Below are positions 6,277 to 60,187 of a stretch of 64,000 nt of DNA, piece after piece. The notes below the pieces were generated by a model. The model was not told the DNA's origin and ran no database searches. It saw only the letters and a program-made list of their open reading frames with translations. Within the stretch, counting starts at the first letter, position 1. Every line of letters starts with the position of its first letter. Origin of the DNA: Chiloscyllium plagiosum (lineage: Eukaryota); the NCBI RefSeq assembly GCF_004010195.1, contig NC_057713.1:13145940-13209939 (forward strand). The letters are read 5' to 3'. Both the position numbers and the translations under genes were made by a program.

Positions 6277-6424
6277 AGATGACAGAGTGGAATTATGGTC
6301 ATTATGCAATGGCATAATATTCCTGTACAATATTTAAACATGGACACATAACACAGTTTGGTGTGTAAGACAACCTTTTTTTTTAAGAAACATTGGAAAT
6401 AATCTTTTGAAGCTCAGATTATAC

Positions 6425-6529
6425 CCATGTACAAAGTTACATGTTCCATCGATGGGGTCTATAATCCAAGTGGGGTCATCAGTCAGAATGCACTTTTCAC
6501 CAGCTGCAACAGATTCTTCGCCAATAAAT
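6425..6529 (-). CDS. IMPA2: IMPA2 coding exon 3 ([34 protein letters not shown])
   Basis: 105 nt, tgcag acceptor and GT donor, phase 2/2. Has the metal-binding GEE and WIIDPIDGT signature; TCNFVH is IMPA2-like rather than IMPA1 (TTNFVH). Confidence 0.96.
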
Positions 6530-6849
6530 CTGCAACAAGAAGCTGAATTCAATTAAAAATGGCAACAATGCATTGGGTTTGTCAATCCAACTGTATCTTA
6601 CATAATGACCAACTGTTTGTACTGGAGGTTTCTCAGTCAAATGGCTCAAAACGAAAACGAAGCAGTGCTTTGATCAGAAGGGATCTTTCATTCGATTTTC
6701 CTGCACCTTTCAAAAGGGCCACCAAAACTGAGAATTCAAGTTGTAACAAATTTGTTTTGTCACGTTATTACTTTCGTTTAATGTTATAAATGTTTATCCA
6801 GCTAACCGTAACTTTACTGTTAAATGATATGACTATTCAATATTGAAGT

Positions 6850-21640: not shown

Positions 21641-21743
21641 GCTTCTTTGGTAATACTATTGAATCTGCATCAAATTTGGGGAAAGGACAAAAACAGAGTT
21701 ACACCATTTTTGGGACCTAAAACTGTCAGTGAAAACCACATAC

Positions 21744-21877
21744 CTGTGTGAAGGAAACTTGTTGCTTAGCGTTGAGATGATAAGATTTTCAACAAGCTGG
21801 TCTGTTTCAGTTACGAGGTCTGCTGCTGAGGACTTAGTCTGCACTCGCTTTTCACTTGTTAATGCTTCCCTAATTAT
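21744..21877 (-). CDS. IMPA2: IMPA2 coding exon 2 (IIREALTSEKRVQTKSSAADLVTETDQLVENLIISTLSNKFPSHR)
   Basis: 134 nt, AG acceptor and GT donor, phase 0/2. Contains the IMPase K..xDLVTETD motif. Confidence 0.95.
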
Positions 21878-26368: not shown

Positions 26369-26868
26369 NNNNNNNNNNNNNNNNNNNNNNNNNNNNNNNN
26401 NNNNNNNNNNNNNNNNNNNNNNNNNNNNNNNNNNNNNNNNNNNNNNNNNNNNNNNNNNNNNNNNNNNNNNNNNNNNNNNNNNNNNNNNNNNNNNNNNNNN
26501 NNNNNNNNNNNNNNNNNNNNNNNNNNNNNNNNNNNNNNNNNNNNNNNNNNNNNNNNNNNNNNNNNNNNNNNNNNNNNNNNNNNNNNNNNNNNNNNNNNNN
26601 NNNNNNNNNNNNNNNNNNNNNNNNNNNNNNNNNNNNNNNNNNNNNNNNNNNNNNNNNNNNNNNNNNNNNNNNNNNNNNNNNNNNNNNNNNNNNNNNNNNN
26701 NNNNNNNNNNNNNNNNNNNNNNNNNNNNNNNNNNNNNNNNNNNNNNNNNNNNNNNNNNNNNNNNNNNNNNNNNNNNNNNNNNNNNNNNNNNNNNNNNNNN
26801 NNNNNNNNNNNNNNNNNNNNNNNNNNNNNNNNNNNNNNNNNNNNNNNNNNNNNNNNNNNNNNNNNNNN
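26369..26868. other. Assembly gap (500 N)
   Basis: Run of N. Confidence 1.
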
Positions 26869-32627: not shown

Positions 32628-33092
32628 GCTCTACTCAGTCTTCCTGGTGACAGGGGACTCTGCTCAGTCCTCCCACTGACAAGGGGGCGCTGTTTTGTCC
32701 TCCCTCTTAGGGGGAATGGAGGGAATGGAATGTTTGGTCCTCCCGCGGAGAGAGGGCGCTGTTTAATCTTCCCAGTGACAAGGGGCTCTGTGGGTCCTCC
32801 CACTGACAGGGGGAGTTGCTCGGTCCTCCTGCTGACAGGGGGCGCTGCTCAGACCTCCCGGTAACACGGGGCGCTGCTCGGTCCTCCCGGTGACAGAGGG
32901 AGCTGCTCGGACCTCCCACTGACAAGGGGCGCTGCTCGGACCTCCCGGTGACGTGGGAGCTGATCGGACCTCCCGCTGACAGGGAGAGCTGCTCGGACCT
33001 CCCGGTGACGTGGGAGCTGATCGGTCCTGAATTGCTCGTCTCCCGCTGACAGGGGGAGCTGCTCGGACCTCCCGGTGACAGGGGGCGCTCGA
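32628..33092. repeat. GC-rich minisatellite, ~29-bp unit (GCTGCTCGGACCTCCCGGTGACAGGGGGC), roughly 14-15 degenerate copies
   Basis: Tandem units directly visible; they explain the repetitive minus-strand ORFs at 32707-33206. Confidence 0.92.
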
Positions 33093-33360
33093 TGTCTGCC
33101 AACGGCGGCATTCATCTTTGAGCTTGATGATTGAGTAAGATCCGCATCTCATTGAGAGTAACGGACGGCAGTTATGGACATGCCGCCTGTACACAGGTGC
33201 ATGCAAGTGAGTGAAGTCCGGGGAGTTTCCTAAACGGACAGCCGGGTCTCCGTGCCTCCCCCCCCCGGCGGTATGACTCTGTATTGGCCGAGGCCTGAGA
33301 TCCGCTGAGTGGCCCAGGGCTATACTCCCGAAAAGGGGCCACTTGGCCTAGACCTGATGG
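32740..33360 (+). promoter_or_regulatory. CpG-island-like promoter / exon 1 region of the CEP290-like gene
   Basis: High CpG density relative to the CpG-depleted background; overlaps the predicted first exon. Confidence 0.55.
33174..33206 (+). CDS. Unnamed coiled-coil / CEP290-C-terminus-like gene, probable coding exon 1 (MDMPPVHRCMQ)
   Basis: ATG in strong Kozak context (GTTATGG), in-frame TAA upstream at 33159, CAA|GTGAGT donor, phase 0 matching exon 2. Lies in the most CpG-rich part of the window. Confidence 0.6.
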
Positions 33361-34544
33361 CAACTACTGTGGAATTTTATTTTTAAAATAACGTCTTTAT
33401 AAAAGTCACAGTAAGGATGTCCTAATGGCATTATCGTTTAATTATAAATCTAGAGCCCTGTTAATATTCTGGGGGGACAGTGGTTCATATCCCTCAATCT
33501 CAAATAGTGGAATTTCATTCAATAAATATCAGGAATTCCCATGAAACCAATGTCGGAAACTCCAACTACTTTGTTAATGTCCTTCAGGGAGGGCTTCGGA
33601 CCCCTAGCAATGTGATTGACAGTTAACTGCCGGCTGGGTAGTTAGGGATGGCTAATAAGTACTGGCTTGGCCAGTGATGTTGACATCCTGTGAACGGATT
33701 TTACAAAAATCGGTGTGTTTTAAAAGAACTGCGGACGCTGGAAGTTAGAGACAAACACAGAAACTGCTGGAAAATTCTCAGCAGGTCTGGCAGCATCTGT
33801 GGAGAGATATCAGAGTTAACGTTTGGGTCATGTTCTGAAGAAGGATCGCTGGACCGAAAATGTTAACTTATGCTTATCAGTATATTCTTGGATTCAAAGT
33901 GGTGGACAGTACCTCAATAATTACTGCAGTTTGTTTTCTCCAGCTCCTTCTACTGTTTGTACTTGGTGTCCACATCTGCTGGAGGTGCTCAGAATAGTTG
34001 CAGATCTTTCTGTGGTTTATGTGTTCTTAGGCAGGACAGTGCTGCCTGTCTGTGGGATTATTACATTATTTTCCCAGAGTTTTCATTTGTAAATTTTAAA
34101 ACTGAACCTTTTTATCTTTAGGCTTGATTAAGTGGCAGAATGTTAAAACATTACTGTTGAGAAATGGTGGTGGAGAAAGACAAAATATAAATCTTGTTGA
34201 TCACTGCTGAATTGTCAACTGTAGAAGGCTTGGAAAAGTTGAGGTGTCACAGGAGCACTGCAACACATTTCCAATGTGTTGGCTCCAGGTCTCATTGATG
34301 GAGGGAGGCTAAAGATTAGACTTGTCTGTGATCTCAGAGTCAGGATGTAGCTTGGGAACAAATGTAGGTTAAGAAATAAAATAGGGTTTCATATCACCAA
34401 ACAAGAAATTTGTAAGCGTATTGTTGGCAAACTCAGATTCCTTTCCCAAGTAATAGATGGGACGTTACAAAGACATCATTCAAAGGAGGTTTTAGCTGTG
34501 CTGTATGTGATTTGTACTAACCCTATTTCCATGTTTTCCTGTAG

Positions 34545-34684
34545 CTTTTTGCTGAAAACGAGCATATACAAAGAAAGTTGAAGAAACTTCGGCTGAAAAA
34601 TGAACAATTGGAACGCGAGCTTTCAGAAGTCCAGGGAAAGCTGCAAATGCAACAGCTGATGAGGGACTTTGTAACTACCAGAGA
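34545..34684 (+). CDS. CEP290-like gene exon 2 (LFAENEHIQRKLKKLRLKNEQLERELSEVQGKLQMQQLMRDFVTTR..)
   Basis: Branch point TACTAAC plus ttttcctgtag acceptor, GA|GTAATT donor, 140 nt. Heptad-rich helix. Confidence 0.85.
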
Positions 34685-35729
34685 GTAATTAGCTTTTATT
34701 GCATACTGTAGGAGTCCTTAAGCACTGCTACATTATTATATCTATCTGTGTATAAAACAACTCACAAATATTACAACAGCAAAATTCCATTCGGAGAAAG
34801 AAAGAAAATTGAAGCCTGCTGGACAAGATGCTGGCCATATTCTAAAACTCACAATTACCAAACTTGGGTGTGTGGTAGCATGATGATTATGTTACTGGAC
34901 TAGTGATTCAGAGACTGGCTAATGAGCTGGGAACTTAACTTCAAATCCAACCAGTGTAGCTTCGGAATTTAAATTCAATTAATTAAATATATTTGGGAAT
35001 AAAATGTGCTACCAGTAATGGTGACCAATTAAAGTTCATCTGACTCACTTATGTCTTTTAAGGAAGGAAATCTGTCATCCTGTCTGGCCTGTCCATGTGA
35101 GACTTCAGGACCATAGTACTGTAATACGGCAGACTTGTAACTGCTTTGTGAAATTGTCAATCAGATCATTCGGTTGTATTCAGCAAGGTGGCCTCTCTCC
35201 ACCATGCTGTCAAGAGTAGTTTTGTTGTACATGTTGGCTTTGCCAGTGTGTCCATAGCCACTGAATAAATTTTTACAACCTCTTGAGTTGTTTGTTGGCT
35301 CGATTAACCAGCTTTTTTAATTGTATCCCATGCTTTCAAAACCTTGGTTTGTTTAAATGACATTTTGTTGACATCATCTCTAATCTAAAAGTTAAAATAA
35401 TTCTATTGTTTGCAATTAATGTTGTGCAGCAACTGCCTTTTAAAATGGTTTCAACCATTTTGTGAAATTGACAAGTAGTGAAATAAAGAGTCTGCTCTCA
35501 GCATTTTATTTGCCCGATATAATAGGAATAGACTAGGAATTAATATCTGTGCAGGAATTGGAGGATATACCACTGAAGTCTGCATCTGTGCATGAGCTGT
35601 TCTTTATTTACAAAGTGTTAATGCAAAAAAGCTGCGAACATATTAGTTCTAACCCTTGTTGGATTTAATTGGAATGATGTAGAAGATACTACAAAACAAA
35701 TACTAACCATCACCGTTGTGTTTTCCAAG

Positions 35730-35813
35730 TGCTCAAATACAAACAGAACCACAACCATGGCACAAAGGAGGTGTTAAAGAAGGCAGTGTTTCAAAGGCAG
35801 ATGAAAGGAGCAA
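35730..35813 (+). CDS. CEP290-like gene exon 3 (DAQIQTEPQPWHKGGVKEGSVSKADERSN)
   Basis: TACTAAC at 35701, ttttccaag acceptor, AA|GTAAGT donor, 84 nt, phase 2/2, open in frame. Confidence 0.78.
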
Positions 35814-36689
35814 GTAAGTATCTTCATTGCCGTTTTCAAAAATATTTGTGTATTGAGCAGAACGAGGCAACCAAACCTTGCCTTAATTTAGAGTGAATGA
35901 AGGATAAGTGATCTAAGAGGCCAGAAATAGTTTTTGCTTTAAAGAAGATAGATGCATACAGGGTTATAATAATTATTCAGGCCAGCATTTCCTTTACTTG
36001 CCCCCACCAGAACCGTTACTTTGTCCCCAGCAACCTTGGAAGAAATAGTATAAATTAAATATTTGTGTAAAATACAGTGATAATTTGTTCTGCACTGGTC
36101 TGCAAGAGACTTTTGAGGCAGACGCCAAACCTTGGAGGAATTAAAGTTGATTGTCACAAAATAAATGCAAATAATCTCGATCCATATGAAGTCCACAGTG
36201 AGTAGGTACTTAGTTTCATACAAATAGTAATTAAGAAAGGCGATGGTTACATTTAATATCTGCATAAATGTAAAGCAGGCAACATATTGGTTGGGTACTG
36301 AAAGTGAGTTGCATTTATCAAGACTGTTTGTGGATTTGGGTGTCTGAAGTCAACATTTTCTACAAATTGAAAAGTCTTCTTTAGAAATGTTTCGACAATG
36401 ATGTGCAATATAATTTATGTTATAGCTTGCTAATGCAGTTTCTATGCCTTGTCAAAAATTGTCAAATAAATATGCAATCATAATCAGAGAAATTGTTGGT
36501 TAGATCTCGGAGTTATGTCTTTGAACTCAGTTCGAATATTTTTCCACCAACAAGTAAATTCTTAAGAATTCTATATGTAACCTGGCTTTTAATCTCATTT
36601 TTAAATCCAACAAGGTCACATCGGAATGGAACCTGGAAGCTCCTAGTTTCCGGTCTGTAATTCCCCCCCCCAAACCAGTGTCTGCCCTG

Positions 36690-37005
36690 CCATCGTCCTG
36701 GTATTGNNCTGTCACCCCACCCCCCCCCGATATCCGCCATCCCCTCAGTGTCCACCCCGTCAGACTCCCCAGGATCCACCCTGTAATTTCCCTCTCCCCC
36801 ATGACTGTCCATCATTCTCCTAGTATCTGTTCCATGATCTGCCTGGTACCCGCCCAATGCTGCAATCACCCTGGTATCCACCCTTTCCTTCCCCCCAGTG
36901 TCCGCTCCATCATCCTCCTGGCCCCCCACCCCCCAGTATCCACCCTGTCATCCCAATGGTTATTCACCCTGTCATCCACCCGGTTTCTGCCCTGTCATCC
37001 CCCAG
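36690..37005. repeat. C-rich degenerate tandem repeat (ATCCACCCTGTC motif)
   Basis: Repeated (G/A)TCCACCC(T/C)GT units. Confidence 0.55.
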
Positions 37006-37664
37006 GATGAAGGGTTACTCCAGTAACCTTTGCATGAAACACCAATCAACCTTTTGCTTTCCTAATTCCTTGCTATACCTACATATAACTTTGTGATTCA
37101 TGTACCAAGATCCCCAGATGTCCCTGACCCACAAGGTTTGCAAAATCTCTTTTGATTTCAGTCGTATTTTGCTTTTGTATGTTTTGTGCAAAATGGAGCA
37201 GCTCATATATTCCCATATGATTCACCATCTGTATTTTCTCCCCCACTGACTTAATCTGTCTATATCTGTTTGCAGACTCTCTACCTCCTCTGGGCTACCT
37301 ATCTTGGTATTGTTGTCAAAGATACACCTTTTGGTCTGCTTTTTTTTATTCATTCACGTGATGACGGTGTTGTTGGCTAGGCCAACATTTAGTGCCCCAT
37401 TCCTAACTGGCCCACATGTAGGCCAGACCAGATAAGGACAGCAGATTTCCTTCCTTAAAGGACATTAATGATTCAGATGGGTTTTTCCAGCAATCAACAA
37501 TGGATTCATGGTCATAGAGATGTACAGCATGCAATCAAACCTGTTGGTCCAACTTGTCCATGCTGATCAGATATCCTAAACTAATCTAGTCCCATTTGGC
37601 CCATATCCCTCTAACCTTTCCGATTCATATACCGATCCAGATTTCTTTCACATATTGTAATTGT

Positions 37665-37858
37665 CAAAAGGTGTGGTGCTGGAAAAGCACAGCCGGTCAG
37701 GCAGCATCCAAGGAGCAGGTGAGTCGATGTTTTGAGCACAGTTTATGCTCAAAACATCAACTCTCCTGCTGCTTGGATGCTGCCTGACCGCCTGTGCTTT
37801 TCCAGCACCACACGTTTCGACTCTGATCTCCAGCATCTGCATTCCTCACTTTCTCCCA
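37665..37858. mobile_element. Fold-back PLE pLTR element, family A, nested in a CR1 tail
   Basis: Arms meet at TTTTGAGCA-cagttta-TGCTCAAAA; tail present. Confidence 0.8.
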
Positions 37859-38821
37859 CAAGTTATAATTGTACCAACCTGCACCACTTCCTCCACGTGA
37901 AAGAGTTGTTCTCATCATTTGACTCTTAATTCCAGATTTTAAAAAAAATTGAATTCAAGTTTCACCATCTACTGTGGCAGGATTTGAACCCAGGTCCCTA
38001 GACATTACCTAGCTCTGTGGATTAACAGTCCAGTGATAATACCACTAGGCCATTGCCACTCCTAATCCAAGACATTGATATTGGTTGAAAGTTGTTGATA
38101 CTCCATTGATCTTTATGGCATTCCATTAGTTACAGCTTGCAAAGTGAAAAAGGAAATTTCCCTCTACCGTCTGCTTCCTTTTAGCTAACCAGTCTTTGAT
38201 CCATGGTGATGTCTTAGCCATTACACCATGTGATGTTGCACCTTAGCAAATACCATTTTAACATCCAAATGCACCACCTTTTCTGGTTATGTGCCTTGCT
38301 GGCTACTTTCTTAGCCACGTTTATGTTATGCCCCGATGTTTTTTCAAGTTGACTTTTTATTTTAAGCATTTTAGTATGCAGAAGTAAATTGTACTGTGTA
38401 GTCTCTAATTATTGTCCTATATATAACTGCCTTGAAGAGCACTGACTTCTTTAGGGAACTACAGCAGCAACCGTTCTATGCCATGGGCATTTCAAAAGCA
38501 GCAGCAAGGTGTCGGATGAATGATTTGTTTTTTCTCCTGATGATTGAGCACGGTAGGTCAGGGTGGCCAGTAAGTTACTAACTGTATCAATGTGTCACAG
38601 CACCTTTAGGATGTCCCAAACTACGGGAGCACTCATGGTCGATTTAAATTTGTAAAATCTTTCAGTTTGTTGGGTATTCACTTCTCTCCTGTTACTCCAA
38701 TCCTGTGTAACCTGTATGTGACATCAGTTTCATTTTACATGGTTCAATCTTAATGCCTCGAGGAATGTGTTATTTCAGAAATAACGATACTGGACTAAAT
38801 ATCATGTCTTTGTTTAAAAAG

Positions 38822-38915
38822 TCGACTGCTACAGATGTATAACGCTCTACAGAAACGCTATGAAAAAGAAATTAAAACCAACAAGGAGCAGAGTGAAATC
38901 ATCTCTAATCTCACT
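38822..38915 (+). CDS. CEP290-like gene exon 4 (RLLQMYNALQKRYEKEIKTNKEQSEIISNLT)
   Basis: AG acceptor at 38820-38821 (weak, aaaaag), ACT|GTGAGT donor, 94 nt, phase 2/0. Confidence 0.8.
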
Positions 38916-39859
38916 GTGAGTTCTGCATTTTTGTATCACAACTGCATCATGTTTCATTCATTATCAAGTGGCTATCTGTACCTGAAATATTGACAGCTTG
39001 GGATGATATGGAATTGACAAGCCTTTACCTGTGAGAATGTTGAAGACATGCTGAATTTCACAGAATCTTAGAAGTATTATGGCATAGAATGAGACCATTG
39101 CGTCTGCACCAGCTCTTCAAATGAGCATAATTTCCTATTGCCAATCTCCTGCTTTTCCCTGCATATTCTTGCATGTTATTTCTCTCCAAGTAATCATCCC
39201 GAATCCTCTTGAATGTCTCAGCTGACCTAATTTGATGTAAAATGAAACTGGAAGCTTGTTTATGTCAGCCATGTTTTATTTTAACCATACATAAAAAAGT
39301 AGTTCTGTTCAAGGAAATGTTTGCCCATTAGCCTGAATTTGGAGATATTTATTTTTCTTTATACGGTTAATGGGAGTCACATGGAAGAAGAATGGGTGGA
39401 AATCATAATTACCAAACATTTATTTGTTTACTTTGTGAGACAACATGATGGTTTATATCCATGATATATGTAAACAACAATAACAACAGCTTTCATTTCT
39501 ATGCCACCTTTAACATAGTAAGATGTCCCAATGTGCTTTACACAAGTAGTATTGAACAAAGTTTGACATTGAGCCACATATGGATGGATTAGGATGATCA
39601 AAGATGTCATTTTAAGGAGTGAGTTAAACACTCGCTGTCACATCTGCTTGTTTAACTCACTCTCAGTATGATTCCTTGAATAAATTCTGCTCCTCTCTGC
39701 GACAGGATTTCCATTCTGACCTTCTTGTTCTCTGTTGTTACTTTGGTTTTCTCTCCTGGCACTTGACATAGTTTTAAAGAATGTCTTACTGGAAGAAAGT
39801 GAGCAGCAGAGGGTTAGGGCAGGGATGTGTGAACTGAGTGTCTGTTAAAGTAAATTATA

Positions 39860-41840
39860 AAGGATATAATAGCAGTGCATTTAAAAATACAGAATATGAT
39901 CAAGCAAAGTCAGCGTGGCCTTTTGAAAGGAAATTCATACCTGACATTTACTAGAGTTCTTTGAGGGGATAATGGGAAAGGAATGGAAGTACTACATTAG
40001 GAATTTGATAAGGTGACACACTAGCCTACTTAATAACAGGAGCCCATGGTGTTGGACAAAATATATTAACATAGAGGACTGGCTAACTACAGAAGACAGA
40101 GAGTTGAGTTAAGGGGAGCATTTTCAGGATGGCAACATGTAACTGATGGTGAGCCACAGATATCAGTGTTGCAGCCACAATTATTTACAGGATATATTAA
40201 TGACTTGGATGAGAAATGAGAATGTACTATAGCCAGATTTGCAAATGACAGAAAAATAGGTGGGATGACAGTTGGTGAAGGTGCCATAATGGGTAAAGCA
40301 GACAGGTTAAGTGAGTGGGCAAGATCTTGGCAGATGGAATATAATATGGGGAAAAGTGAAGTTATGTACTTTAACAGGAGGATTAGAGGAACTGAATATT
40401 AGTTAAATAGAGAAAGACTAGAGAATGCTACAGAAAGGGATTTGGGAGTTCTCATCCATGAAACACAAAAAACTGTCATTCAAGTTCAATGGATAATAGG
40501 GAAGGCAAATGGAAAGTTAGAGTCATGGAGATGTACAGCACGGAAACAGACCTTTCGGTCCATCTCGTCCATGCCAACATGATACCCTACATTTGCCAGC
40601 ATTTGGTCCATATCCCTCTTAAACCCTTCCTATTCATATACCCATCCAGATGCCTTTTAAATGCTGTAATTGAACCAGTCTCCATTACTTTTTCTGACAG
40701 CTCATTCCATATACACGACGCTCTGCGTGAAAAAGTTGCCCCTTAGGTCCCTTTCAAATCTTTCCCCTCTCACCTCAAATCTATGCCATCTAGTTCTGGA
40801 CTCCCCCATCCCAAAGAAAAGATTTTGTCTATTTACTCTATCCATGCCCCTCATGATGTTATAAACCTGCGTAAGGTCACTCTTCAGCCTGCGACGTTCC
40901 AGGGAAAACAGCCTCAGCCTATTCAGGCTCTCCTCACTGTCTCTCCTCCAGGGAATAACTGTGGTTGGGGTATTGTTTTCCCATATACTCTCTTTGTTGC
41001 ACTCCCTAACTATATATCCTTCCTCAAACAGTGAATCACCGATGAGATGGAAGAGGAGTGAGATTGACTATCTCATTGCTCCTGCTGCTGTTCCATGTAT
41101 TCCGACAGGGCATTCACTTTGCAGCGCAGTTGGTCTTAAATGTTCAAATTTAGATGGAATGAAAGCATTAATTACCCGGACCGTGGCCAAGATCGAAGTC
41201 TAAGGCGAGCACAGATCAGCAGCCGGTTGACACGGGGATCTGGGCGTTGACCTTTCTTTCAAAGGGAATGGAGTACAGAAGTTGGGATGTTTTGCTAAAA
41301 CTATTCAAGGCACTGGTTAGATCCCAGTTGGAATACTGTGAACAACTTGAGAACCCTTATCCGTGGAAACATTTACTGGCATTGGGGCAGTCCAGAGTAG
41401 GTTCACTTGGCTAGTACGGAAGGAATGTCTGATGAGGAGAGATTGAATAGATTGGACCAGTACTCAATGGAATGTAGAAGACTGTGAGGCGATCTTATAG
41501 AAATGTACATTTCTTGGGAGACTTCACAGACTAGGTGCGGAAAGGTTGTCTCCCCTTCTGGTAGCGTCTAGGACCAGAGGGCAACAGCCCAGAAGAAGGG
41601 GCTGCACATTTAAGATAGAAATGAGGAATTTCTTTTCTCAGAGGATCGTGAACTTGCGGAATTCTTTACTGCAAAGGAGTGTTGAAGCTGGGGCATTAAT
41701 TATTTTCAAGGTTGAGAGAGACAGATAGTTAATCAGTAAGGGAATAAAGGGTTAAAGGTATGAAAGTGGCATTGAGGATTGTTAGATCAGCCATGAACTT
41801 GATTGGCTGAATAGCATACATCTGGTCCTACATTTTGTGG
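39860..41840. mobile_element. Old plus-strand CR1 with a nested minus-strand young CR1 tail (40519-40935)
   Basis: RT remnants on the plus strand; reverse-complement family tail at 40519. Confidence 0.7.
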
Positions 41841-43732
41841 CCTTTTAATGGTCTAATAATTAAGCATCTCAGCAGGTGAGGGTACGGTCACTTATATTGC
41901 TGCAATGAGAAAGAGGCCGGAGTTGGAAGGCCGCTGACAGCCCGAGAGGCCTGGTGCAGTACATTAAAAAGTGATAATGGAGTTTGAGGGCAATGAGAAT
42001 TATAAAATGGAGACATTGGCAGGCTGGGAGCCAGTATTGATCAGGGAGCACAGAAGTGATAGGCAGTGTTCCCTGTAAGCTGTGTGTGTGGCTGCACATC
42101 ATTTGAAATCCTCGTGCACGCTCCTGTCATCCTCCACTGTGTGACTTCCACTCTCTTTTAAATATATTGCGCACACTGTAAGGACGTCTGCGCAGGAACA
42201 ACAAAAATTAGAGAAAACCTTAGTGCTGGGACTTATTGCAATCTAGAATATCGGCAGCAAAGTTTAGGATAACTTGGCTGGAAGAAGAGAGGTGAGTCAG
42301 GATTGCAACAGAGTCAAATCTAGACCGAACAAAAATGTGAGTGAAAATTTCAGTAGCATATAAACTAAGGCAGAGGTGAAGCTGAGAATGTTATGGAATT
42401 GGAAGAGAGTGGTAAAAATAGTCAAGCATGACACCAAGCTGTGCACGATCTAGTTCAGCCTCGGGCAGTTGCCAAAGGTGGCTTTGCTGGCAAGATAAGA
42501 GTTTGTAGTGGACACTGAAGGCAATATTTCCTTTGCTATAATCTTTCTTGTCCAAACATATAGCATGAGCAGAGATTTTCTTTAATAGATATTAGGAAGA
42601 CTGATTTTGATATTTGCTGCGCATGTTCCTGTTGGTTAGTGAGTTTTTACAGTTGTTTCTTTTGCTGCCAACTCAGCTAATTGTTCATTTTAAGTTTTTC
42701 CAAACCTTTAGGCATCTTTGAACAATGTTGTTTACTACCTTCTTTTACAACCTGTAACTTCTGGAATAACGTTTAGATTGTAAGTGATATTCTATCCTGA
42801 CCTTTGCTTATACCACGGTTAGTTGTTCGTGTTGAAATACTATATTTAGATTCAGCAACAGATCATTTCAGTCAGCTCTCAATTAATAACAACTTCAGAA
42901 AGTTTACACTGTGATACTTGGTAGGAAAGGTCACCAAAAGCTTTATCTAAAGAGATAAGTTTTAAGGAGTATCACTAAATAAGAGAGAGAGACGTAGGAG
43001 AAGCAAAAAGGTTTAGGAAGGGAATTACATAGTTTATGGCCAAAAAATTGAATCTAAGCTAAATTAACATTGTTATCAATAATTGCCAAGAAGATAAATC
43101 TCTGGACAGTTGAACATTAACTCGATAAGTTAACTGTCAATGATAAATAATGGCACATATTTTCAATCTTCCATGCAGAGATATGAAAAACCATTCTCTA
43201 GCTCTCGGTCTAAACTGTTAACAAAATCTCAGTCTCTGACTAAACCTGTGGTTTTATTGCAGACTGCACCACAGTGTCCTTGGTGAACTCTCAGTAATTT
43301 CAGAATAACTGTGATCACCTCAGACTATTGAAGTCCTTTTAAGATAAAAAGGATTTTTTATTTAAAGGGATCTGTGATTTCAAACATGGTTGCTAACCAG
43401 GCATATATTGGAAAATGCACAAAAGATGTTTATATATAAATTTAATGTGAATGTTTATGTAAAAACTTATGAAAGCAATAGGACAGGTAAATGTATACTA
43501 TGTTACGATTTGTGTATGGACGTGACATTATCTGAACCTGGAAATAGTTTCCATTTATTAACCTGCATGATTTTCTTTTCTTGTGATTTTGATTCAGAAT
43601 GTGCTGCAACCCCAGAAAGATTGTATGATACACAATAGACAAACACTTCTCTTTCATTGCTATTATTGTTTCACTTATTCTTGGAGTTTGCACAGTGTAA
43701 GATGTTTGGTTCCTCACTCTTGCATCTTCCAG

Positions 43733-43907
43733 ATGAACATTCATGAGTTAGAATTGCAGCTTGTGACATCAAAACAAAGAATTCAGCAGCTGGAACACCC
43801 TCCAACAGTGAGGAGACGAAAGACACCAACACCAGAGCACGGCATTACATCTCCTAAACACCAGTCTGATGGCAAGAGATGCTGCTCACCTGACTGTATC
43901 CACACTG
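43733..43907 (+). CDS. CEP290-like gene exon 5 (MNIHELELQLVTSKQRIQQLEHPPTVRRRKTPTPEHGITSPKHQSDGKRCCSPDCIHT)
   Basis: catcttccag acceptor, G|GTGAGG donor, 175 nt, phase 0/1. Confidence 0.83.
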
Positions 43908-46822
43908 GTGAGGCTTTAACTGATATTTCTTTCTTCTTGTGGATGTTAACTTATATAGACATCTAGTTTCTCATACACTGGCTCAAGTGGCCTTTCATCA
44001 TCTATGAGTGGACTACTGGAGAATGTTTTAACTGTGAGGGGCAGGAAGTATCATAGACAGGGCTCTCTTGCCAACTTTGTCCTAATGACATCCCTACTTT
44101 CTAGCAGACATCATTTGATAGGTAATAGGGAATGGGAATAATATCTGGGAATTGCACCTCTCCCACCCGCCCATCCAGTCTTTTGCGGCAGTGAGGTCAT
44201 TTGTGACAACCCATTATTACTCAGCTTGAGATCTGCAATCTCAGTATAGAGCACAGATTGAGCCCTTAACCACTTTGAGTTATACAGTTTGGAAACAGAC
44301 CAGTCAGTTCAACCCGTCCGTGCCGATTAGACATTCCAATCTGGCCTCGTCCCATTTGCCAGCACTTAGCCCAAATCCTTCTGAACCCTTCCTATTCATA
44401 TACCCATCCAGATGCCTTTTAAATGTTGTAACTATATCCGCCTTCACCACTTGCGCTGGCAGCTCATTCCATATGTGCACCATGCTCTGTGCAGGAAAGG
44501 TTACCCTCTGGAGCACATTACTTTCCTGAACTAGCGTGAACCTTATAAAGGCACACTGTGCAATTTGTGCAGCCTTGCAGTTTAATTTACATTCAGTAAT
44601 TGTAATTGTTTAGCCCATCTAGCCCAATCCTCAGAACATAATCATTGAGATCTACAGCACAGAATAAAGCTCTTTTGATACATTGAGTCTGGACCAGCCA
44701 GAGACAATAACCTTACTATTCTAATCCCTTTTTCCAGCACTTGGCCCATAGCTTTGTAAGCCTTAACATTGTAAATGTGTTCCTAAGTACTACTAAAATG
44801 TGATAAGCGTTTCTGCCTCTACCACTCTTACAGGTAGTGAGTTCCACACTCCTAGCACCTTCTGGGTGAAAGAAAATCTTCCCTCGCATCCCTCTAATCC
44901 TCCTGCCCCATACCTTAAACCTATGGCCTCTTGTCATTATTCCCTCGTGTCTACTGTATCTATGCCCCTCATAATTTTATACATCTTAATCAAATCTCAC
45001 CTCAGTCTCCTCTGCTCCAAGGAAAACAACCTCAGTCTATCTAATGTCGCCTTTATAAATAAAACTGTCCAGCCAAACAGCATCCTGAGAAATCTTTGCA
45101 CCCTCTGCAATACTGTCACGTCCATGCTGTAATGTGTATTATAATACAGCCCACATTAATCTAGCTGTAGCCCAACCAACATTTTATATGGTTTCCGCAT
45201 AACTTTCCTGCTCTTAAACTCTAAACTTCAGTGAGTAAAAGGCAACTATTCCATATGCTTTTTTTAACCACTTTATCTCCCTGTCCAACCACATTGAGGA
45301 TGAAGGGACCAACGCACATGCACACCAAGGTCCCTCTGATCCCTGGTGCTCCCAAGGTACTATACTGTTCTTCATGCATTCCCATGCCTTGTTTGTCCTG
45401 TCCAAGTGTACCAGAGAGAAAAGTGAAAACTATTGCCATCTCCCCTGCCATTACCTCCCTTGCCCCATTCAACAGCCTCAGACACATTTAATCGGGCCCT
45501 GGATATCTGGCTATTTTATGCCTGCCAGACCACTGAGCATGGAATAAGGTGAGGATATTTGACAGGGGAGTTTACTGAGGGATGTTCAGTTCATTCTGTC
45601 TTTACCAGCTCTCCGAATGATTGTTTAGATTTAAGTAATTATCTACCACTGTAGGAGCAGCAGTAGGCCATTCAGTCCATCAAGTCTCCTCCACCATTCA
45701 GTGAGATCATGACTGACCTGGTAATCCTCAACCTTTCAACCTTTTCCCATAACCCTTGATTTCTTTGATGATTAAAAATCTGTCTCTCTCAGCTTTGCAA
45801 ATGAACCAGCCTCTAAATCCCTCTGTGTGAAAGAATTCCATATATTTATTACCCTCAGAGAAGGAATTATTCCTTGAATGCCTTGATTAGGCCTGTCTCC
45901 ACTATACTTCCTGGCTGTTTGTTGCAGACTCTATTTGCTGCACAAAACAATGTTTTCTCAAGTCATGTTTGCTTCTTTTGCAAATGTCCTTATATCTGTG
46001 TCCACTCATCTTCAGTCTGTTCATGAACAGGAATAATCTTTGCTTATGTACTCTATCTAGCCCCTAACTTCTTCAATCTTCGTAACTGAAGTGTATCATC
46101 CCTGGAATCACTGTAGGAAACCTCTTCTCCACACTCTGCAACATGCTCACATCCTCCTTAAGGTGAGGCACCCAGAATGTTTTTTTTTAATGTGTTCATG
46201 GGATGTGTCCGTCTCTGGCTAGGCCAGCATTTATTGCCCATCCCTAATTACCCAGAGGTCAGTTCAGGGCCATTGTCTATGCCAGGTCCACAGCAGTGCT
46301 TCAGTTGTGATCTAAATGGTTTCTTATACAGGTTCAGCATAAAGAGTACTCTATCATTTCTCACTTACCAAGCAGCTTACAAAATTCCCGAATACATATC
46401 CATTAGTATGTGTTCTTGTTTTACTTTTGAGTGGAGCATTCTATTAAAATAATGTCCACATCTCTCTGATATTAAAATTGCATTCTATCTTACAATAATC
46501 TGATAATCTTTACCTTTCATAAAAACAGTTTAGAAATTAATATGGAATACAAATGTACATTTATTTCTGATCTGAACTAAATTTGTCCAAGCAGAGGGTC
46601 AAGGTGGTCAGATTCTGATATTCAGACAAATTACCTGAGGGAGGCTTGCTTGGGTGACACTCTTGTATTTCATAACATCAGTTCAAAGGAAATCCTGTGA
46701 AACCAATGAAATTTGAGCAAAACTATTAAAAGAGGGACTATAAAAACAGACTAATTTAACAAGTTTTACTCCCCATGTTTGCAATCCTATCATTTCCTTT
46801 TAATATTTGTGGTTTTCTGTAG

Positions 46823-46917
46823 AGTTGTTGCTGGAGATAGAAAGACTGCAAAAGGATAAGAACAAACTGATAAAAGAGAGACGTAATCTGAAAAATGAGC
46901 TAGCTGGACTAGACAAG
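46823..46917 (+). CDS. CEP290-like gene exon 6 (ELLLEIERLQKDKNKLIKERRNLKNELAGLDK)
   Basis: ttttctgtag acceptor, AAG|GTATTG donor, 95 nt, phase 1/0. Coiled-coil. Confidence 0.88.
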
Positions 46918-47778
46918 GTATTGTTTTGCTCATGATTTGTTGTAAGCTTTATTTAGTTGAGCAGTCCTCTTCAACTGGTTAAGTTATTTCATTGACATCT
47001 TGTCTGATGTGGCCATCACCACATTACTTCATGGGTATACGCTATGAGGGGTTCTTGTGGCGCAGTGGTAGGGACACTACTGAGCCAGGAGCCCTGCATT
47101 CAAATCCTCCCTGCTCCGAAGGATTGTCATGACATGTCAGAGCAATCTGATTGGAAAATATCTAGATATGTTATAAGGTTCTCTTGTGGTATAGTGCTAG
47201 TGTCCCTCCCTGCTCCAGAGATGACATCTCTGAAGAGGTTAATGAAGAAAATACCTAACCTGAGGAGCTCCTGCAGTGAGACCGTTGGCTTTGAACAACC
47301 ATAACCATCTTCTGCAGTAAATCAGAAATTGTTGAGCTGGTGATGATTTCACCCCAACACTCTTAAAACAAAAAATTGTCAAGAGGTATCCCTACCCCTG
47401 AGCCAAAGGCTGGTTACAAGTGCCACCTGCTCCAGGGTATGTAATACTAGCACTGGTTAAATTGTCAGAATGTCATTGCATTCAGTGGATGATATTTAGT
47501 ATGGCATAAGAATATGTGCCCTAACCATTTACTGTGTAATTTATGATCAAATTCCAATGCGCAGTGATCCCAATGCTTTTTAACTTGTTTTAGAACAAAG
47601 GTTGTGTGGCTTCAACATACAGTTCAATTGAATGTTCAAAACTGAATTAGCTAGTATCAGAGGGGCTTTATTGTCACTTCAAGTTAAGTGTAATAAACAT
47701 GTTAAGAATATATTTTAAATGTGACTTCTGAATTTTTACGTTGCTTAGACTAATTTGATTATTCTTTGTGTAATGCAG

Positions 47779-47925
47779 GGTTTCTTTGAGGAAATTGAAG
47801 ATTTAAAATATGCTTTGCAAGAATCTGCTAAACTGAATAAAGAGTATGAAAAATGTCTACGGGCCATGTGTGAAAAATGTGGCCTTCCATTTCCAGAAAC
47901 ATTATGTCCAGTTACCACAAAATGA
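47779..47925 (+). CDS. CEP290-like gene last coding exon (GFFEEIEDLKYALQESAKLNKEYEKCLRAMCEKCGLPFPETLCPVTTK*)
   Basis: tgcag acceptor, phase 0, TGA at 47923-47925. FFEEIEDLKY matches the CEP290 C-terminal motif as I recall it. Confidence 0.88.
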   Translation, partial: GFFEEIEDLKYALQESAKLNKEYEKCLRAMCEKCGLPFPETLCPVTTK

Positions 47926-49210: not shown

Positions 49211-49216
49211 AATAAA
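49211..49216 (+). terminator. Candidate polyadenylation signal of the CEP290-like gene
   Basis: AATAAA about 1.3 kb after the stop codon, at the end of a repeat-free stretch, with T/GT-rich sequence downstream. Confidence 0.3.
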
Positions 49217-51072
49217 ATGGTTAAGTAATTATTTGTTAAGCAATTTTAAGTTTTGTTAGAAACACATTATTTCATCTGTTTCTGTGCAAACAGTAGTTGG
49301 AATAATCAAGTTCATACTGCAGTGTCCTCACATTCTAAGCCCAGTTTCAAAATTTTTGAAAATGGCAAACATGTCAGAATGGCCAGGGCTGTCACCTGTT
49401 AACAGGGCTTTCCTCCTTTCTATGAACAGGACAACATTTGAATTTTTATAGCACCTTCACAACCTCAGGATGTCTATTTTGAAGTATGGTCATTGTTGTA
49501 AAATGGAGAAAACTGCAACCAATCTGTGCAACAGGATGACTGGCGTTATATAACCTAAATAAGACCTCAGTAAGAAAACTTAACAGTTCTGAAGATTTTG
49601 AAACATTAATTCTCTTTCTGTCTCCACAGATGCTACCAGATCCTGCCGAATTTCTCCGGCATTGTCTGTATAACTGACCTAATGATCTGTTTTAATATTG
49701 TGAACCTAAGAGAAGAATGTGAGTTGGAAAAGCTCCCTGCTGTACTTTGAATTGTGCTACAGGAGCATTTATGTTCACGGGAGAGGAGAGAATAGACAAT
49801 AACTCAGTTAATGCCTTAAAACAATGCAATACTTACTCCAATCTGCACTGGTATAGCATGCTAGATTATATACAAATTCATCTAGTATGGGATTGAACCC
49901 ACAGTCTTCTGATTCAAAGTTAAGAGTGCTCCAATAATATCTTAGTGCAATATTATCTCCAGCACTTGGCTCTCATTTCCCTTTGAAACAATCTTGTGGT
50001 TGAGTTTGACATTTTTAACCAACCTGTTTGAGGGTGTGATGACCCTTGTCTCGACCAGGTGGACTTCAACCTGCACCTCCTGGCTCAGAGGGAGGGGCAC
50101 AGCCACTGCATCTCAAGAGCCTCTGGCTAAGATTGATAGATATTCTCTAAGCAACCTGTTAGTGATGTTATTATGCATCTCTGGAGCAGGTGGGACTTTA
50201 ACCCAGGCCTCCTGGCCTAGAGACAGGGACTTTGTCCGTGTGCCACAAGAACCTGTGGCTAAGATTGATCACTCAAAAGAATAGAAAGTCAAACGTGCTG
50301 GCTGTCAGCCTTTGTGGTTAAACCTAGTTGTTCCAACACATCAGGTGATTTAAATGAGATTAATGAGAATTGTGTTTTTTTTTCAGAAGAAATAGTGGTA
50401 TGGATTGGGAAGTTGTTTCACTTGTGTAAATAGAAAATGATTCTTAGCAGTGAGGGTTCAAAATAAGTTCTGGTAAAAGAAAACATTCTTTAGCTGTGAG
50501 TTTGTGGCTTTGTTTATTAATTTGATTCCATAACCGGTAGATATAGTGCGTTTGGATATTCAGAAGGCACCCGATAAGATGCCACGTCAAAGATTACAAG
50601 ATGAAAGTTCATGGTATTCGGGTTAATGTTTGGTGAGATGTTAAACCAAGAACGTGTCTACTATCTCAGGTGGATGTAAGAAATTCCATTACTCTATTGA
50701 AGAATAGCTGCAGATTTCTCTGTGTACCATGGCCAGGATTTATCCTTCAACTAATACCTGTTTTTTTCATTGTAATCTGGCTGCTATTTCTACACTTTGT
50801 TAAGCACTTAATGAGGTGCGAAGTGTGTGTTGTGACATTGTAAATTAATGTAAGTTTAGCAAAAGGAATTCTAGAATGGTGTTTTCATAGTTGCCCATGA
50901 AAGGGAAATCATGTTTAACCAATTTATTAGTGTTTTTTATAGATTAAGAAGCAAGGTGCATTAGTAGATGCTAGTATCTGCAATGTATTTGAACTTCCAA
51001 AGGGCATTTGAGAGGTGCCATACATACAAAAGGTTACTGCACAAGATTTGAGCTCAGGATTTTGGAGTAATA

Positions 51073-59409: not shown

Positions 59410-59681
59410 ATGTTCGGGCTGTCTATCCATCCCATATGGACTCGGACATTGGTGAGGAGGTGGCTGCACCAGGAGGTGCTGCTGTGGCCCTTCCTCAAGC
59501 TGCTGGCTCTGGGGACCGTGGTGGCCTTGTTCTGTGAGCTGGGCATTTACTATGCAGTGATCCTGAGATGTGACTGGCCTCCGCTTCGAGGATCATCCGC
59601 ACCAGTGCTGAAGGCTTTGTTTCTGGCTGACACACATCTCCTGGGAGCTCTGAGAGGACACTGGTTCGACAAACTGAGGAG
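59410..59681 (+). CDS. MPPE1: Metallophosphoesterase 1 (PGAP5), first coding exon; gene continues beyond window end
   Basis: TM segment followed by [12 protein letters not shown] and [23 protein letters not shown], then AG|GTGAGG donor (phase 2). Head-to-head neighbour of IMPA2, as in human 18p11.21. Confidence 0.93.
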
Positions 59682-59852
59682 GTGAGGCGCACACACACGC
59701 AGTGAAATCAAACGTGCCAAATTTCAATTTTATATCAAAGGCTGGCCAGAGAGGATCAAAAAGTTCAGACCTTGAGTTTGAACCCCCTTTGCTGAAGTTG
59801 TGCGTTCCAATGGTCGGAAATGTGCCTGGCTTCAATCTTGATTAACAAGCTT

Positions 59853-60081: not shown

Positions 60082-60187
60082 NNNNNNNNNNNNNNNNNNN
60101 NNNNNNNNNNNNNNNNNNNNNNNNNNNNNNNNNNNNNNNNNNNNNNNNNNNNNNNNNNNNNNNNNNNNNNNNNNNNNNNNNNNNNNN
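60082..60187. other. Assembly gap (106 N)
   Basis: Run of N. Confidence 1.

Follow-up and report, generated by a model that had tools for sequence, protein, structure and literature searches.

A seven-exon gene beside IMPA2

We analyzed a 64,000-nucleotide stretch of the genome of the shark Chiloscyllium plagiosum (NCBI RefSeq assembly GCF_004010195.1, contig NC_057713.1, positions 13,145,940 to 13,209,939 of the forward strand), called the window here and numbered from its first letter. Its forward strand holds a real, spliced, single-copy gene that belongs to an ancient family and encodes a protein of 255 amino acids (aa) with a C-terminal module like that of the transition-zone scaffold CEP290 (NPHP6/LCA10). 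The seven coding exons lie at 33174–33206, 34545–34684, 35730–35813, 38822–38915, 43733–43907, 46823–46917, and 47779–47925 (33, 140, 84, 94, 175, 95, and 147 nt). They join into 768 nt, or 255 codons plus TGA, with no internal stop, and all six introns have GT..AG ends and compatible phases. An earlier sequence-only reading of the window had given these lengths, ends, phases, and open reading frame (ORF), and re-reading the window reproduced them exactly. The same reading had called the gene hidden, which it is not, as the spliced product is identical over 255/255 residues to protein P0006, the automatic RefSeq prediction XP_043543681.1/XP_043543682.1. The last exon matches its own genome only once; thus, no retrocopy of it was seen.

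The exons divide the protein into recognizable parts. Exon 1 encodes aa 1–11, including a conserved P-x-x-H-x-C start, and exon 2 encodes aa 12–58, which cover coiled-coil helix 1 and the first residues of an LC8 (dynein light chain)-type motif. The core of that motif, Q62-T63, and the disordered linker 1 are encoded by exon 3 (aa 58–86), followed by helix 2 in exon 4 (aa 86–117). Exon 5 (aa 118–176) supplies the end of helix 2 and linker 2, which is variable, basic, and disordered. Helix 3 and the start of the CEP290-type module come from exon 6 (aa 176–207), and the core of the module from exon 7 (aa 208–255 plus the stop). The protein is built from known parts in a new arrangement, and the LC8-type motif was absent from the sequence-only reading.

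Transcripts and alternative ends

RNA evidence came from raw reads making up about 2 in 100 of run X18 and from contigs of runs X1, X2, X3, and X16, all of unstated tissue. Looking for spliced junctions in RNA-seq, as the sequence-only reading had proposed, we found GT..AG joints at five of the six introns, three of them in raw reads. Intron 1 is joined in two raw X18 reads and in contigs of X1 and X16, intron 3 in an X16 contig, intron 4 in X1 and X16 contigs, intron 5 in four raw reads and X1 and X16 contigs, and intron 6 in nine raw reads and X3 and X16 contigs. No joint for intron 2 was found among the 15 of 21 joints listed. Its removal is indicated indirectly by a 616-nt X2 contig, in which exon 5 occupies positions 319–492, after 318 letters that equal the summed length of exons 2, 3, and 4. 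The X16 contigs, meant to serve as a DNA control, themselves carry spliced joints as well as a poly(A) end. No run listed as holding the gene was recorded as RNA, and run X19 gave no alignments.

Two polyadenylation sites on the forward strand were identified. The first lies within intron 2 (35264–35286), with AATAAA at 35264 and tails at 35282–35286, and is marked by 30 poly(A)-tailed X18 reads and a tailed X16 contig. These tails begin 13–17 nt past the AATAAA, where the genome has no A-run. The distal site (49211–49229) has AATAAA at 49211 and tails at 49229, giving a 3′ untranslated region of 1.3 kb. Among the ends listed, run X18 alone has 30 tailed reads at the intron-2 site versus 3 at the distal site. 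Conceptual translation of the intron-2 form would yield a 58-aa product that keeps helix 1 and loses both the QT anchor and the tail. Additionally, a 102-nt cassette exon with in-frame stops, a poison exon, lies between exons 5 and 6 at 46061–46162 (+), with joints in X18 and X16. An alternative last exon at 49630–49677, used in the Chiloscyllium punctatum model P0135, drops the CEP290-type core; it was not found among the joints listed. The turtle models P0159, P0161, and P0199 stop at the same point as P0135.

The C-terminal module is shared with CEP290

The true CEP290 gene lies on a separate contig, C19, with its own last exon there. We searched 320 kb at that locus with a profile of the small family; the CEP290 last exon scored 44 bits, and the others among 13,984 six-frame peptides scored at most 9 bits. 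This is far above generic coiled-coil similarity and supports the proposal that a small gene of its own bears the C-terminal module of CEP290. The shark small protein and the shark CEP290 last exon are identical at 22/59 positions (37%), and the family tail scores 42–54 bits on six CEP290-type tails. In a profile-profile comparison with a chytrid CEP290 of 2,285 aa, residues 2200–2268 of the latter were matched with a probability of 97.8, and only residues 177–245 of the small protein aligned. A profile of residues 1–140 reached no more than 13.1 bits on the shark CEP290 locus and 12.1 bits on six CEP290-type proteins. As judged by these scores, the likeness to CEP290 is specific and confined to the last ~55 residues (194–246). 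The protein as a whole is not the miniature CEP290 that had been proposed, given the ceiling of 13 bits for residues 1–140. A single hmmsearch span had equated the whole protein with the last 240 aa of CEP290; the residue 1–140 scores and the limits of the profile-profile match rule this out.

What the two proteins have in common is an acidic-aromatic helical module of ~55 residues at the very end of the chain. They differ in most other respects. CEP290 has ~2,000–2,500 aa, whereas the small protein, at 255 aa, is about one tenth as long, with relatives of 230–300 aa, and is encoded at a separate locus. The CEP209_CC5 domain (PF16574) is found in CEP290 (P0250; contig C19) and had no match in 20/20 small-family members. 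None of the five CEP290-type proteins scanned, long or partial, has a QT motif at the equivalent place. The part of the module that follows the common acidic core has diverged by family (ALQ.S.KLN..YE vs NY...V..N..LE). The last introns also differ in position, as the CEP290 last exon begins 15 codons upstream of that of the small gene. As an indirect indication, 27 of 70 short database records start at the acceptor position of the small gene.

A tree of the module with 63 rows places 18 of the 21 rows classed as CEP290-type, which are mostly unnamed fragments, with the shark CEP290 tail at a support of 90/75. An approximately unbiased (AU) test over 25 rows and 67 columns rejected a grouping of the shark gene with shark CEP290 (p 8e-5) and one of the vertebrate small genes with two vertebrate-type CEP290 tails (p 4e-4). 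Support for the split between small proteins and CEP290 is only 66/88, and the trees are unrooted and built on 67 columns, with the deep order unresolved. Within these limits, the trees reject a duplication from CEP290 of vertebrate age, and by the sequence comparisons the small gene is not an orthologue of CEP290. We also observed that the middle exons of CEP290, at C19 ~52.353–52.415 Mb (L026, L025, L005–L009), run on the opposite strand to the rest and lie between N gaps, likely an assembly inversion.

Protein anatomy and the LC8-type motif

AlphaFold models three helices (residues 5–61, 77–138, and 170–241), with a predicted local distance difference test score (pLDDT) below 50 at residues 60–77 and 142–169 and a predicted template modeling score (pTM) of 0.25. 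We examined 264 proteins, of which 157 span the motif region and 57 remained after redundancy removal (<70% identity). Over these 57 rows, conservation averages 0.45 in helix 1, 0.55 in residues 57–64, 0.22 in linker 1, 0.47 in helix 2, and 0.17 in linker 2. It peaks at 0.70 in module residues 200–231, the most conserved part of the family. At residues 57–64, after the first coiled coil, the sequence RDAQIQTE takes the form of an LC8-type motif. The strict pattern [TVISAC]QT[DE] is present in 43/57 members, against a mean of 0.56 and a maximum of 3 in 200 shuffles, and a looser Q[TV] within the linker window is present in 46/57. Q62 is kept in 47 rows and T63 in 46, directly before the poorly conserved linker. 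The motif is also present in a choanoflagellate member, P0222. Searching with the exact DNA pattern of the motif matched only this gene, and LC8 genes are present in the genome.

LC8 is a dimerization hub, and the available part of PMC6607443 gives as rules for its sites a polar residue at −4, branched residues at −1 and +1, D, E, or P at +2, and a disordered setting. The columns of the motif (n = 46) have R at −5 in 33 members, D (23), S (8), or N (5) at −4, V (24), T (11), or I (5) at −1, T at +1 in all 46, and E (25) or D (13) at +2. Position −3, where a large or basic residue would be expected of an LC8 partner, is Val in 18, Ser in 7, and Ala in 6, with Ala in the shark. This make-up fits those rules with two exceptions: the shark has a small residue at −3, and most members have Val/Ile rather than Thr at −1. 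Like the LC8/DYNLL clients described there, in which a QT motif adjoins a coiled coil, the small protein has an eight-residue motif with D at −4, a branched −1, Q at 0, T at +1, and E at +2 at a border between helix and disorder. Unlike them, it has a putative site with an IQT/VQT anchor and is not a known partner as far as the available text shows.

Two further features of the chain were observed. Residues 4–16 form a start motif, P-x-x-H-x-C...E-N, in which H is kept in 47, C in 50, and N in 54 of 57 rows; if the protein dimerizes, paired His and Cys residues could coordinate a metal or be linked by a disulfide. In a branch beside corals (P0121, P0122, P0164, P0166, P0171, P0178, P0182, P0209, and P0197), the QT motif is lost, and the start motif and tail are kept. 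Elsewhere in the genome, at L040:1444-1758 (G000:C19:63498776-63499009), there is an intronless, diverged frame of the dynein-light-chain family that is probably a processed copy and that we presume to be DNAL4-like.

Pfam gave no family above the cut-off for five exon peptides or 20 family members, and the best Protein Data Bank match by sequence had an expectation value (E) of 0.028, among generic leucine zippers. Foldseek returned 0 matches, which is uninformative given the pTM of 0.25.

An ancient family with apparent losses

The last exon retrieved 36 proteins, a family profile 162 (best 120 listed), and a bony-vertebrate profile 170 (best 120 listed). An unindexed search returned 491 proteins at E up to 0.001 (best 150 listed), of which 20 were looked up. 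Among the matches listed, named members of 230–300 aa come from a ctenophore, corals, molluscs, echinoderms, hemichordates, amphioxus, sharks, and rays. Named vertebrate members also come from bichir, sturgeon, paddlefish, coelacanth, lungfish, caecilians, turtles, crocodile, squamates, and birds. The 20 proteins looked up include three complete choanoflagellate ORFs of 262–270 aa, one flatworm, one acoel, and one chytrid CEP290. With the tail-free profile of residues 1–140, the choanoflagellates Salpingoeca, Didymoeca, and Diaphanoeca score 35, 19, and 3 bits, which makes membership firm for one and weak for a second. It is these members, rather than the tree, that place the origin of the family before animals. 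In a whole-length tree of the 57 non-redundant members, the 13 vertebrate rows form one branch, as expected of a single orthologous gene. The gene is thus not the cartilaginous-fish relic once suggested, as full-length relatives extend from choanoflagellates to birds. P0194, P0208, and others, which at first looked like a second subfamily, have the same start and QT motifs and were treated as divergent members.

No mammal, teleost, frog, or salamander name was found among the matches listed from the last-exon search and the two profile searches, with 42 and 50 weaker matches outside the listing. Sharks and bichir still scored above the cut-off in the bony-vertebrate search (E 3.8e-73). The five unnamed rows listed there resemble turtles, birds, or lizards at 79–92% identity; a single record without a name, P0180, is 52% identical to sturgeon and unplaced. 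These absences are from listed matches rather than from genomes, and the search needs shared words to raise a candidate. The family was likely lost in mammals, in keeping with the mammalian loss already suspected; we are less sure of its loss in teleosts and frogs.

The database orthologues XP_043543681.1, XP_014343967.1, XP_043923299.1, and XP_039610685.1 are automatic predictions of 230–300 aa named by similarity only, and some records of the family wrongly carry the name of CEP290 or of MPPE1 isoforms. We found no study of the family in the open-access literature, supplements aside. A “290 kDa-like” protein is named in lists in the available parts of PMC7935066 and PMC7006924; its identity with this family is not established. 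The gene model is known to databases; the family, its age, its apparent mammalian loss, and its LC8-type motif were not found in that literature.

Flanking genes and the 5′ region

A GC-rich, CpG-enriched region at 32736–33206 (+) includes exon 1 and, just upstream of it, a 29-bp GC-rich tandem repeat of ~10 copies (32736–33028); it is likely the promoter, head to head with IMPA2. For this left neighbor, the second exon (21743–21877, minus strand) matches IMPA2 best, at 57 bits vs 40 for IMPA1, and the third (6424–6531) places IMPA1 slightly ahead, at 61.8 vs 56 bits for IMPA2. IMPA2 and the small gene are ~8 kb apart. An assembly gap of 500 N (26369–26868) lies between IMPA2 exon 1 and the small gene, and another of 106 N at 60082–60187. 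To the right, the exon at 59410–59682 had no Pfam or Protein Data Bank match and is the first of a gene that we take to be MPPE1. The songbird members P0062 and P0306 are labelled “metallophosphoesterase 1 isoform” and yet hold the family sequence, which hints at the same neighborhood or at read-through in birds.

Discussion

We propose, tentatively and at a strength just short of probable, that the small protein is an LC8-clamped dimeric adaptor held at the ciliary base by its CEP290-type tail. The parts of this proposal differ in strength. LC8 probably binds residues 57–64, to judge from the conserved motif, and would zip helix 1 and its neighbors into a parallel coiled-coil dimer. We lean slightly toward a protein that works at the basal body or transition zone, where the C-terminal module would dock as the C-terminal part of CEP290 does near the axoneme in fly. 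There, according to the available parts of PMC10914257 and PMC7793253, this C-terminal part is positioned via Cep131-Cep162. It is possible, with less assurance, that the sites at which this tail and the CEP290 tail dock are of one kind, so that the protein would be a short LC8-stabilized adaptor beside CEP290 and not a copy of it. Polyadenylation within intron 2 and inclusion of the poison exon would serve as off-switches, and the former would strip the product of its tail as well as of its LC8 anchor. In the available part of PMC13679261, variants that abolish function in the last exon of human CEP290 are reported to be pathogenic, so the module matters in CEP290.

Several observations weigh against this proposal. 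By the rules given in PMC6607443, as far as its available text goes, the shark anchor, IQT rather than TQT, and the small Ala at −3 are less favorable, and the Tyr found at −2 in 5 of 46 members is unfavorable. The modeled helix 1 runs to residue 61 and covers the first half of the motif. The whole motif is missing in 11/57 members (nine of them in the unnamed branch beside corals) and is thus not essential everywhere. The fly localization, as described in the available text, used a ~590-aa fragment and not the last 55 residues. All organisms that hold the gene are ciliated, but so are mammals, with none among the matches listed. The ESM Atlas returned only generic coiled-coil clusters sharing at most 139/256 features, and no expression, localization, or interaction results for the family were found in the open-access literature.

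The best-surviving alternative, which we consider doubtful, is an LC8-clamped scaffold outside cilia, at the centrosome or spindle, on dynein cargo, or in germ cells, with the tail as a self-association coil left by an old duplication. LC8 partners occur throughout the cell, according to the available part of PMC6607443; nothing in our analysis places the protein at cilia, and the runs that gave the spliced reads do not state a tissue. However, a plain dimer coil would not usually be conserved to the degree of the acidic-aromatic core, and among the long proteins looked up, the tail was met in CEP290-type ones.

Regulation of CEP290 itself by tail mimicry, an idea from the sequence-only reading, is less likely still. 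Here, the small protein would form a hetero-coiled coil with the CEP290 tail or compete for its partners and so tune CEP290 loading or opening. The module is shared specifically with CEP290 and stands at the extreme C-terminus in both, and a closed-to-open change of Cep290 has been proposed (PMC10914257, available part). However, the module halves past the acidic core have diverged by family and the two groups separate in trees, which suggests distinct partners, and conserved helices 1 and 2 and the LC8-type motif would be left unexplained.

We regard as improbable a ciliary coiled-coil structural part whose QT motif is a short site of another kind, for binding or for modification. The anchor and the −3 residue, both non-canonical, and the helix predicted over part of the motif would suit such a site; against it, five positions are conserved in the manner of an LC8 site, in animals and in one choanoflagellate. 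An artefact, be it a pseudogene, part of CEP290 placed here by mis-assembly, or exons lined up by chance, can be dismissed with near certainty: the CEP290 locus does have an inverted block between gaps, but CEP290 keeps its own last exon on C19, spliced joints are seen, relatives in the full-length range number 162 and 170 in the two profile searches, and close sharks differ mostly in linker 2.

The CEP290-tail module has neither a Pfam family nor a solved structure, and a natural 255-aa protein that carries it offers a tractable handle on its binding. Records of the family should be corrected in databases, as they are neither CEP290 nor MPPE1 isoforms. As the family is apparently missing in mammals, the protein may be a basal-body component that studies in human, mouse, and perhaps zebrafish could not find. 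A more far-reaching version, to which we give little weight, is that a pre-animal duplication produced a small partner of CEP290. This LC8-clamped dimer with a second copy of the CEP290 tail would control how CEP290 docks at the transition zone in lineages from choanoflagellates to birds, with intronic polyadenylation as its off-switch, and would have been lost in mammals and probably in teleosts and frogs. If true, this would show what the disease-relevant last CEP290 exon does and tie LC8 to transition-zone assembly, and the losses would explain why cilia research on standard models never met the family.

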